Of a stretch of 64,000 nt of DNA, positions 29,252 to 29,626 are shown one piece after another; position 1 is the stretch's first letter, and every line of letters begins with the position of its first letter. This stretch comes from Candidatus Kaiserbacteria bacterium (GTDB taxonomy: Bacteria; Patescibacteriota; Minisyncoccia; Phycocordibacterales; Phycocordibacteraceae), in the NCBI GenBank assembly GCA_029288835.1, contig JARIGN010000004.1:22313-86312 (forward strand). Direction: 5' to 3'. The notes under the pieces were generated by a model. It was not told the origin of the DNA, made no database searches, and worked only from the letters and a program-made list of their open reading frames with translations. The position numbers and the translations under genes are program-made.

Positions 29252-29626
29252 ATGAAAAAAGACACAATACTTTATTGGGGAACTTATCTGGTCCTTGCGA
29301 CAGTTTTTACCATTCTCTTTAGATGGCTTTTTCCTAACTTGACTGAAAATCTATCTGAGAGCATTACAGGCATAGCTTATGCAGATTTAATTATGCTTTT
29401 AGGGCAGTTTTTCTCTTATGGCAACATGAAGCTACTTAAAAATCATGGTCTAGCAATAAATGTGCTTTTAGTAATAGCGTTTGAAATCTTTTCAATGGTC
29501 GCTCTTATTGTGTTCTATCATTTTTTCCCTTCAGCAAGTGAACTGTGGGGTTTCGGTGTAGGTATGCTTGCCCTAGTGGTACCCCTTGGGGTTGTCGATT
29601 TATTGGCAAGACGTTATAAGGTATAA
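29252..29626 (+). CDS. Small hydrophobic hypothetical protein (124 aa, ~4 TM) inserted between atpG and atpD
   Basis: AT-rich ORF tightly packed in the atp operon. Confidence 0.5.

Follow-up and report, generated by a model that had tools for sequence, protein, structure and literature searches.

Chromosomal hotspots, at which accessory genes integrate between conserved core genes, are a general concept of comparative genomics. A second well-described arrangement is the integron gene cassette, a promoterless open reading frame (ORF) with a 3' attC hairpin that lies in one orientation downstream of a resident promoter. The origin of membrane proto-genes de novo from thymine-rich sequence is also a known concept. 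Here we analyze a stretch of 64,000 nucleotides (the window) from contig JARIGN010000004.1 of a Candidatus Kaiserbacteria bacterium, in which an ORF of 124 codons, ORF124, lies between atpG and atpD, the genes for the gamma and beta subunits of ATP synthase. A search of the accessible literature returned no paper on insertions in atp operons of the candidate phyla radiation (CPR) or on integron-like sites in Patescibacteria. Our results lead us to conclude that ORF124 is probably a lineage-restricted passenger gene, encoding a small membrane protein with four transmembrane (TM) helices, that was inserted a single time between atpG and atpD, where the operon is permissive.

The initial annotation of the window had described an AT-rich ORF with about four TM helices inside an otherwise canonical and tightly packed atp operon, and we find this description to be exact. 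The gene order is a, c, b, delta, alpha, gamma, ORF124, beta and epsilon. Gamma, beta and epsilon were verified by strong Pfam matches, and the remaining subunits were identified from their translations. All eight canonical F1Fo subunits are encoded separately in the operon, in agreement with the earlier statement that no standard subunit belongs between gamma and beta. The ORF124 start codon lies 3 nt past the atpG stop (TAAgctATG), and 14 nt separate its own stop codon (TAA, 29624-29626) from the atpD ATG at 29641. The GC content of ORF124 is 0.373 and that of its third codon positions (GC3) is 0.328. The eight atp genes have a GC content of 0.50-0.57, with a GC3 of 0.55-0.62 in six of them and of 0.43-0.49 in atpF and atpE, the frame of the latter being uncertain. 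The insert as a whole (GC 0.37) stands against flanks of 0.54-0.57; the entire window averages 0.497, and just 3.8% of its 375-nt segments fall below 0.39.

Several lines of evidence show that ORF124 encodes a protein. An ORF of at least 124 codons appeared in 0.035% of first-order Markov randomizations of the 392-nt insert (P ~3.5e-4). The translated product is very hydrophobic (grand average of hydropathy 0.95), with hydrophobic segments at approximately residues 6-27, 38-57, 66-92 and 98-119. Lys and Arg residues are found at the N-terminus, in loop 2 and at the C-terminus, while loops 1 and 3 are acidic or neutral, so that the positive-inside rule is obeyed; this fits a predicted N-in/C-in orientation in the cytoplasmic membrane. 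A single-sequence AlphaFold2 model places helices at residues 3-26, 38-57, 67-91 and 95-121, with low confidence (predicted local distance difference test score 64).

Relatives of ORF124 are exceedingly rare. A word-indexed search of 5.8e9 protein clusters returned the query itself only, while phmmer, run exhaustively against 1.84e9 representatives, identified a single true homologue, P0002 (E 2.5e-23). A profile built from ORF124 and P0002 recovered no further members in the 5.8e9 clusters, a look-up of the exact ORF124 sequence gave no record, and no relative was found in back-translated scans of metagenome and viral contigs or among 160 related loci. Another match, P0003 (E 1e-3), was rejected as spurious, being a repeat protein that matches in five short stretches. 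P0002 is encoded on a 2.9-kb ENA scaffold (L161; related loci are designated by such numbers throughout), directly between the ATP synthase gamma gene and the start of atpD. The window and L161 are 93.8% identical in AtpA, 89.5% in AtpG and 89% in the N-terminus of AtpD, versus 46% in the inserted ORF. The L161 copy is likewise AT-rich (GC 0.35, GC3 0.30, with flanks at 0.51-0.54). Additionally, the called gene in L161 that is homologous to atpG starts with MALKDIK..., and therefore the true start of atpG in the window is probably the ATG at 28340, which gives the same residues, and not the TTG at 28304 used by the mechanical ORF.

The two copies of the inserted gene can be aligned over their full length, with a single indel of one codon (3 nt) and 40% nucleotide divergence. 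Nonsynonymous (dN) and synonymous (dS) divergence between the window and L161 was estimated by the Nei-Gojobori method (NG86). For atpA, dN was 0.041 and dS 1.14, giving a ratio (omega) of 0.036; for atpG the values were 0.063, 1.88 and 0.033, respectively; and for ORF124 they were 0.45, 1.27 and 0.35. The dN of ORF124 is thus 7-11 times that of atpA and atpG. Hydropathy is nonetheless conserved, with a correlation between ORF124 and P0002 of 0.77 per residue and of 0.55 at substituted columns (99.9th percentile of permutations, 0.38). Within the central region, 32% of residues are identical, versus 7.6% for shuffled sequence. ORF124 is a genuine protein-coding gene under weak purifying selection, approximately ten-fold weaker than that on its neighbours. 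Selection appears mainly to maintain the hydrophobic helices, the outside loop (PNL..NLSES), and the final helix together with the basic tail that follows it in the cytoplasm. Because L161 keeps a homologue in place, with an omega of ~0.35 and conserved hydropathy, the gene is neither spurious nor a very recent arrival, and the lack of conservation that had been considered at the outset does not apply. Furthermore, synonymous sites are saturated, yet both copies hold a GC3 near 0.3; for this reason the AT-richness would be an equilibrium property, produced by relaxed selection, mutation bias or constraint, and not just a trace of fresh foreign origin.

Beyond L161, the gene is absent. AtpG sequences of relatives were taken from one-genome-per-species and metagenome collections, the closest belonging to metagenome-assembled genomes (MAGs) labelled Parcubacteria, Paceibacterota, Kaiserbacteria or Patescibacteria. 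In the next-closest relatives, with AtpG 65-78% identical (L001, L003-L005, L008-L013, L022 and others), the spacer between atpG and atpD measures 7-55 nt and contains no ORF. In every relative with AtpG at most 78% identical, atpG either abuts atpD at such a distance, as the initial annotation had thought possible, or is followed by different, unrelated cargo. Homology to the empty junctions runs up to the atpG stop codon and starts again with a TATAAAT box, which lies about 19 nt ahead of the atpD ATG. The retained ancestral spacer (TATAAATAATTTACTAAGT) has its counterparts in the empty junctions (L001, GCTATAAATTATTTATACAATC; L004 and L010, TTATAACC...), and it supplies both the stop codon of ORF124 and the translation-initiation region of atpD. 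The boundaries of the insert carry no flanking direct repeats, target-site duplication or terminal inverted repeats, and ORF124 is its only content, with no second ORF and no recombinase. No further copy of the insert occurs in the window or in 161 related loci. An 11-nt inverted repeat that pairs the start of the ORF (29244-29254) with 29371-29381 was dismissed as chance, since L161 does not conserve it. The simplest history would be that the gene was inserted once, in an ancestor that the window genome shares with the L161 lineage.

The junction occupied by ORF124 proved to be a recurrent site of insertion. We surveyed 141 scorable atpG-atpD junctions, mostly from Patescibacteria, and scored gaps of at least 150 nt as long. 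Forty junctions fell into this class, 29 of them with at least 300 nt and the longest with 2.5 kb; clade medians range from 29 to 125 nt, and the E. coli gap is 26 nt. All 40 long gaps are AT-richer than the flanking atp genes (mean difference 0.12), and 33 hold an ORF, the other seven being AT-rich expanded spacers without ORFs. Cargo with known domains includes SET, PemK/MazF-like toxin, Ham1, the four-helix protein of 23S rRNA intervening sequences (23S_rRNA_IVP), NUDIX, HepT and deoxyribosyltransferase-like proteins, and further cargo consists of ORFan small membrane proteins without any Pfam match. Proteins with at least two TM segments occur in 11 of the 33 occupied junctions. The cargo is co-oriented with the operon, and its members are unrelated to one another and to ORF124; in blastp and hmmsearch comparisons of ORF124 with the relatives' cargo ORFs, the best match was a 64-aa ORF of L072 (E 0.79), which has only the ...RRYK tail in common. 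Spacing is often tight, the first cargo ATG lying at most 9 nt past the atpG stop in 17 of the 33 occupied junctions and at most 5 nt in 13. This pattern is followed by the window (3 nt) and by a fresh insertion in L014 (4 nt). Other F1 junctions also reach 150 nt or more, atpA-atpG in 23 of 137 cases (up to 1026 nt) and atpD-atpC in 13 of 96, and atpG-atpD is the most often occupied.

Cargo is exchanged quickly, even among close relatives. L054 carries a 75-aa TM ORF that L055 lacks, at 99% AtpG identity; L014 is occupied, while L085 and L010 (94-96% AtpG identity) are empty; L052, L059 and L062, with 93-95% identical AtpG, each hold different cargo; and L044 and L047 differ in cargo at 90% AtpG identity. 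The site thus behaves as an insertion hotspot, with conserved flanking core genes and with polymorphism in presence and content at 90-99% AtpG identity, and ORF124, with a GC3 of 0.33 that is atypical of the atp genes, has the composition expected of hotspot cargo. The likeness to chromosomal hotspots extends to the AT-richer cargo and its repertoire of toxins, housekeeping-nucleotide enzymes and ORFans. In contrast to such hotspots, however, the site lies inside an essential, tightly packed operon, the cargo is always co-oriented, approximately half of it starts within 9 nt of the upstream stop and so is close to ORF-precise, and no integrase, tRNA or repeat is found at the window site.

These observations suggest how ORF124 could be expressed without harm to the operon. 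The gene would share the atp mRNA, through read-through transcription that starts at the atp promoter, because it lacks both a terminator and an evident promoter; no terminator-like site was found on the forward strand between atpG and atpD. Translation would occur by termination-reinitiation after gamma, given that the start codon lies so close behind the atpG stop and that the genome hardly uses Shine-Dalgarno sequences, such motifs preceding only three of 32 window genes. Insertion between the atpG stop and the retained TATAAAT box and initiation region of atpD would preserve synthesis of beta and epsilon, and the site is likely permissive because this ancestral initiation region was left intact. 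Only insertions of such geometry are likely to survive, and this would account for the near ORF-precise boundaries that were observed across the clade. The product would insert into the cytoplasmic membrane with both termini inside, and most likely it acts in the envelope independently of F1Fo.

Several points weigh against this interpretation. No insertion mechanism was found. Co-transcription and translational coupling are deduced from spacing only. The family has two members, so that the selection estimates come from one pair with saturated dS. Approximately one-third of the relatives' cargo also consists of small TM proteins, which could hint at a shared Fo-linked role that does not constrain sequence. 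Finally, retention over a dS above 1, an omega below 1 and co-expression with F1 would be expected of an ATP-synthase-associated protein as well.

The 3' end of ORF124 is unusual in its conservation. A block of 36 nt is invariant between the window and L161, with identical codons for 12 of 12 identical residues versus a background of 48-57% (P ~1e-3 to 1.5e-4), and above-average conservation is also seen at the start of atpD (proportion of synonymous differences 0.39). This indicates nucleotide-level constraint or recent gene conversion across both; the block may act as an internal promoter of atpDC, as an initiation element or as a junction element. A promoter-like site that overlaps the block is kept as a candidate and not as an established promoter, as the region holds three such sites versus 5.0 expected in shuffles and the -10 box is not conserved (AGTAAA in L161). 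RNA folds of the ORF ends were no better than shuffles in three of four segments (z-scores +0.55 to +1.66), including both 3'-end folds (among them 29575-29665; z +0.55 and +1.09). The fold of the window 5' junction (29225-29300) had a z of -1.86, with 10 of 200 shuffles as stable, and its L161 counterpart a z of +1.66. A search of the region against Rfam gave no match. Elsewhere in the window, TATACT/TATAAT-like boxes often lie 8-14 nt before an ATG (e.g. 2780, 11642, 17815, 54706 and 57429), which suggests that leaderless or very short-leader mRNAs are frequent in this genome.

The core of the invariant block, AAGACGTTATAA, which lies near position 2666 in L161, has relatives in a sister clade. 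The pattern AAGAC[GA]TTA[AT]AA is enriched in sister-clade atpG-atpD gaps (0.21 per kb versus 0.006 per kb elsewhere). The longer motif GTCAGnnAAGACGTTAAAATCA recurs in the atpG-atpD gaps of L048 (two copies), L054, L056, L062 and L112, and also at position 4644 of L042; its copies sit downstream of cargo ORFs and once upstream. Ahead of GTCAGnnAAGACGTTAAAATCA, a segment of ~140 nt that includes a CCGTAC....GTACGG hairpin is conserved in L048, L056, L112, L115 and L106.

A structured RNA candidate was observed in atpG-atpD gaps of a Paceibacteria subclade with ~50% AtpG identity to the window; it does not occur in the window and belongs to no Rfam family. It consists of a 19-bp stem, UAGUACUuAGUAGUGAG...CUCACUACUCAGUGGUA, whose 5' arm starts at the UAG stop of the upstream ORF, be it atpG or cargo. 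In this stem, 92% of cells are paired versus 35-52% when the arms are slid, with compensatory changes at 11 of the 19 pairs. Alternatively, a small hairpin (88% paired, AU/GC covariation 10:8) can arise when the 3' arm (ACUCAG) pairs with a CUGAGU further downstream. Such mutually exclusive helices suggest a translation-coupling switch or attenuator before atpD. There is one copy per cargo ORF (two ORFs and two copies in L040), copies flank the L054 insertion, and the gaps show ~70-fold enrichment of the core motif. Another candidate structure that could regulate atpD is present in L021, L033, L052 and L059, where a long-range stem, CCCGTTAGAArT ... AyTTCTAACGGG, lies within the last ~90 nt before atpD and its first codons. 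Its 3' arm lies within the first atpD codons, the start codon is enclosed, and GAAAT/ATTTC and GAAGT/ACTTC covary between loci.

The comparison with integron cassettes draws on both clades. Junction cargo resembles cassettes in that it is promoterless, co-oriented, small and often ORFan or TM, and would be expressed from an upstream promoter. The sister clade adds a further likeness, with one 3' stem-loop copy per cargo ORF and with two copies bounding the insertion that distinguishes L054 from L055. In contrast, the window insert has no 3' hairpin or palindrome (fold z +0.55; no dedicated attC model was run), and no integrase was found within the atp operon (tyrosine recombinases were not searched for systematically across the 64-kb window). 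The sister-clade element is also unlike the attC consensus. It would better fit RNA-level coupling or attenuation, because it starts at a stop codon and can form two mutually exclusive helices.

The initial annotation had raised the possibility of an accessory subunit or assembly factor particular to the lineage. In this alternative, ORF124 would serve F1Fo as such a subunit or as an assembly chaperone, functionally analogous to AtpI or AtpZ and made together with the complex. We consider this unlikely, and it found no support in our searches. ORF124 does resemble AtpI, AtpZ and AtpR in its small size (~125 aa), its strong hydrophobicity, its several TM segments and its presumed co-expression with the complex, and its four-TM topology is AtpI-like; these features are generic and non-diagnostic. 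Other observations favour such a role, namely that no atpI precedes atpB, where the neighbouring gene is divergent, that ORF124 is tightly coupled between gamma and beta, that it was kept at an omega of 0.35 in two lineages over a dS above 1, and that small TM proteins occupy a third of the filled junctions of relatives. However, E. coli atpI lies directly before atpB and not between gamma and beta, and ORF124 has no sequence or profile similarity to any of these factors. Neither ORF124 nor P0002 matched ATP-synt_I (PF03899) even at E<=10; Pfam scans at E<=1 or E<=10 gave no match to AtpZ, AtpR or ATPase_gene1 (PF12966, PF09527); hhalign comparison of the ORF124 family with E. coli AtpI and with an alignment of 12 enterobacterial AtpI sequences, itself shallow (>=85% identity), gave a probability of 0.14%; and a profile search of all PDB chains returned no match at E<=10. 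Sub-threshold hydrophobic matches in Pfam and NCBIfam (7TMR-DISM_7TM, 16.6 bits versus a cutoff of 29; DUF2304; DUF4029) were judged to be compositional. Furthermore, ORF124 is confined to two close genomes and not phylum-wide, being absent from relatives whose operon is otherwise the same; it evolves ~10-fold faster than the atp genes; and the same slot elsewhere holds soluble enzymes and toxins, which cannot be Fo subunits. As far as sequence can tell, nothing beyond its address ties ORF124 to F1Fo.

The remaining explanations concern where the insert came from. That ORF124 is a young gene, arisen de novo or overprinted from an expanded T-rich spacer and weakly kept as harmless or mildly useful, seems quite unlikely to us. 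Its coding strand is T-rich, as in proto-genes (T makes up 48% of second and 40% of third codon positions, and in-frame T-rich sequence yields TM-like peptides), it is an ORFan with a single relative and an omega ten times that of its neighbours, seven of the 40 long gaps are expanded spacers without ORFs, and many small TM ORFs at the junction are mutually unrelated. Yet the nearest empty junctions are so short that no non-coding precursor is visible, the insert has sharp boundaries, its four-helix positive-inside architecture and the loop and tail motifs common to both orthologues resemble a mature protein, and other junction cargo clearly came by transfer, since it carries known domains. 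A selfish insertion had also been suggested initially, and we regard it as decidedly unlikely that ORF124 is what remains of a mobile or selfish element or was carried as its payload (examples would be a holin-like gene or small membrane toxin, a fragment of a miniature inverted-repeat transposable element or insertion sequence, or an integron-type cassette). The part of the suggestion that stands is that the gene behaves as accessory cargo at a hotspot: its composition is atypical, turnover is cassette-like and toxins (MazF-like, HepT) are among the relatives' cargo; each sister-clade cargo ORF is followed by one conserved hairpin element, duplicated around the L054 cargo; and AAGACGTTATAA is common to the window and sister-clade gaps. 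The element itself did not materialize, as the insert lacks terminal inverted repeats, a target-site duplication, a transposase or other recombinase, an attC-like imperfect palindrome and a partner antitoxin ORF, the sister-clade hairpin is not in the window, and the gene has been stable in two lineages over a dS above 1. Matches to defence and phage families were of no weight, PADLOC giving only GajA (E 0.022) in one member of the ORF124 family and PHROGs only a holin (E 0.17) in the other. Finally, a spurious ORF, in which the insert is a non-coding spacer or regulatory RNA that chances to be open, is extremely improbable. It would be in keeping with a protein that has no database annotation or name, with the missing Shine-Dalgarno sequence and with the low AlphaFold2 confidence. 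A gap-filling ORF is not expected by chance, however, the frame is kept in the orthologue despite 40% divergence, omega is below 1 and hydropathy is conserved at substituted positions; moreover, the region has no Rfam match, its 3' end folds no better than shuffles, the 5' fold is not matched in L161, and genes in this genome normally lack a Shine-Dalgarno sequence.

Beyond the passenger gene itself, a broader but doubtful possibility is that F1 gene junctions in Paceibacteria, above all atpG-atpD, serve as a platform for gene capture and exchange. Cargo would be promoterless, co-oriented and nearly ORF-precise, and gamma-to-beta coupling would be kept; in one subclade, cargo would come with a switching RNA that begins at the upstream stop. 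ORF124 would be one cassette, and its invariant 36-nt 3' end the junction element of its clade. Such a platform would be distinct from integrons and would exploit one of the most strongly expressed operons in a reduced genome.

Table 1. Features of the ORF124 locus, of the rest of the window and of related loci (feature; position, in the window unless a locus is named; strand; evidence or remark).
ORF124 coding sequence	29252..29626	+	ORF list; 124 aa, ATG start, predicted four-TM membrane protein, two-member family
atpG (F1 gamma), upstream neighbour	28340..29248	+	Pfam ATP-synt PF00231, E 2.4e-83; stop TAA 29246-29248
atpD (F1 beta), downstream neighbour	29641..31014	+	Pfam ATP-synt_ab E 2.6e-76, plus N- and C-terminal domains
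Inserted segment, ~373 nt relative to empty junctions of nearest relatives	29249..29621	+	alignment with L001, L003, L004, L005, L008, L009, L022
Retained ancestral atpG-atpD spacer	29622..29640	+	homologous to empty-junction spacers
36-nt block at the 3' end of ORF124	29585..29620	+	100% nucleotide identity to L161; contains AAGACGTTATAA at 29608-29619
Candidate promoter-like site, TTGGCA-17 nt-AATAAT	29603..29631	+	consensus scan, 10/12 matches; ends 10 nt before atpD ATG
Gene upstream of atpB	24126..24815	-	opposite strand to operon; no atpI there
Delta subunit gene	26355..26747	+	short, 130 aa
Epsilon subunit gene	31020..31268	+	82 aa; beta-sandwich domain only, no C-terminal helical domain
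TruD pseudouridine synthase	20625..22049	-	GC 0.36, GC3 0.26, Pfam E 6.7e-57
104-aa ORFan	5419..5733	+	GC 0.36; overlaps previous stop, ends 4 nt before FKBP gene
214-aa ORFan	56007..56651	+	GC 0.39
879-aa ORFan	2780..5419	+	GC3 0.38
Structured RNA candidate, copies in example loci	L044:5247-5306, L047:5246-5304, L048:5425-5486, L040:5224-5284 and 5642-5698, L054:5290-5348, L055:1238-1296, L062:5272-5331, L063:4910-4974		alignment

Two of the canonical subunits are also noteworthy for their length (Table 1): the short epsilon and delta are reduced regulatory and stalk subunits of this ATP synthase. Additionally, the window holds other AT-rich genes packed tightly between neighbours of normal GC content, including truD and three ORFans. 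ORF124 may therefore be part of a genome-wide pattern in which low-GC accessory genes are embedded in gene strings.

As a member of a two-member ORFan family, ORF124 by itself is a minor curiosity. The new aspect is its setting: rapidly exchanged, co-oriented and often ORF-precise cargo sits at defined junctions of an operon that is essential, highly expressed and tightly coupled, in ultra-small, gene-poor CPR bacteria with reduced genomes. A practical consequence is that extra ORFs inside the atp operons of such MAGs should not be annotated as ATP synthase subunits. If confirmed, the junction would provide a natural system for studying how translational coupling allows new or foreign genes to be expressed as hitch-hikers, and how operon architecture stays functional under insertion. 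It would also show which small membrane proteins CPR cells vary fastest, and these would be candidates for host- or phage-facing functions.

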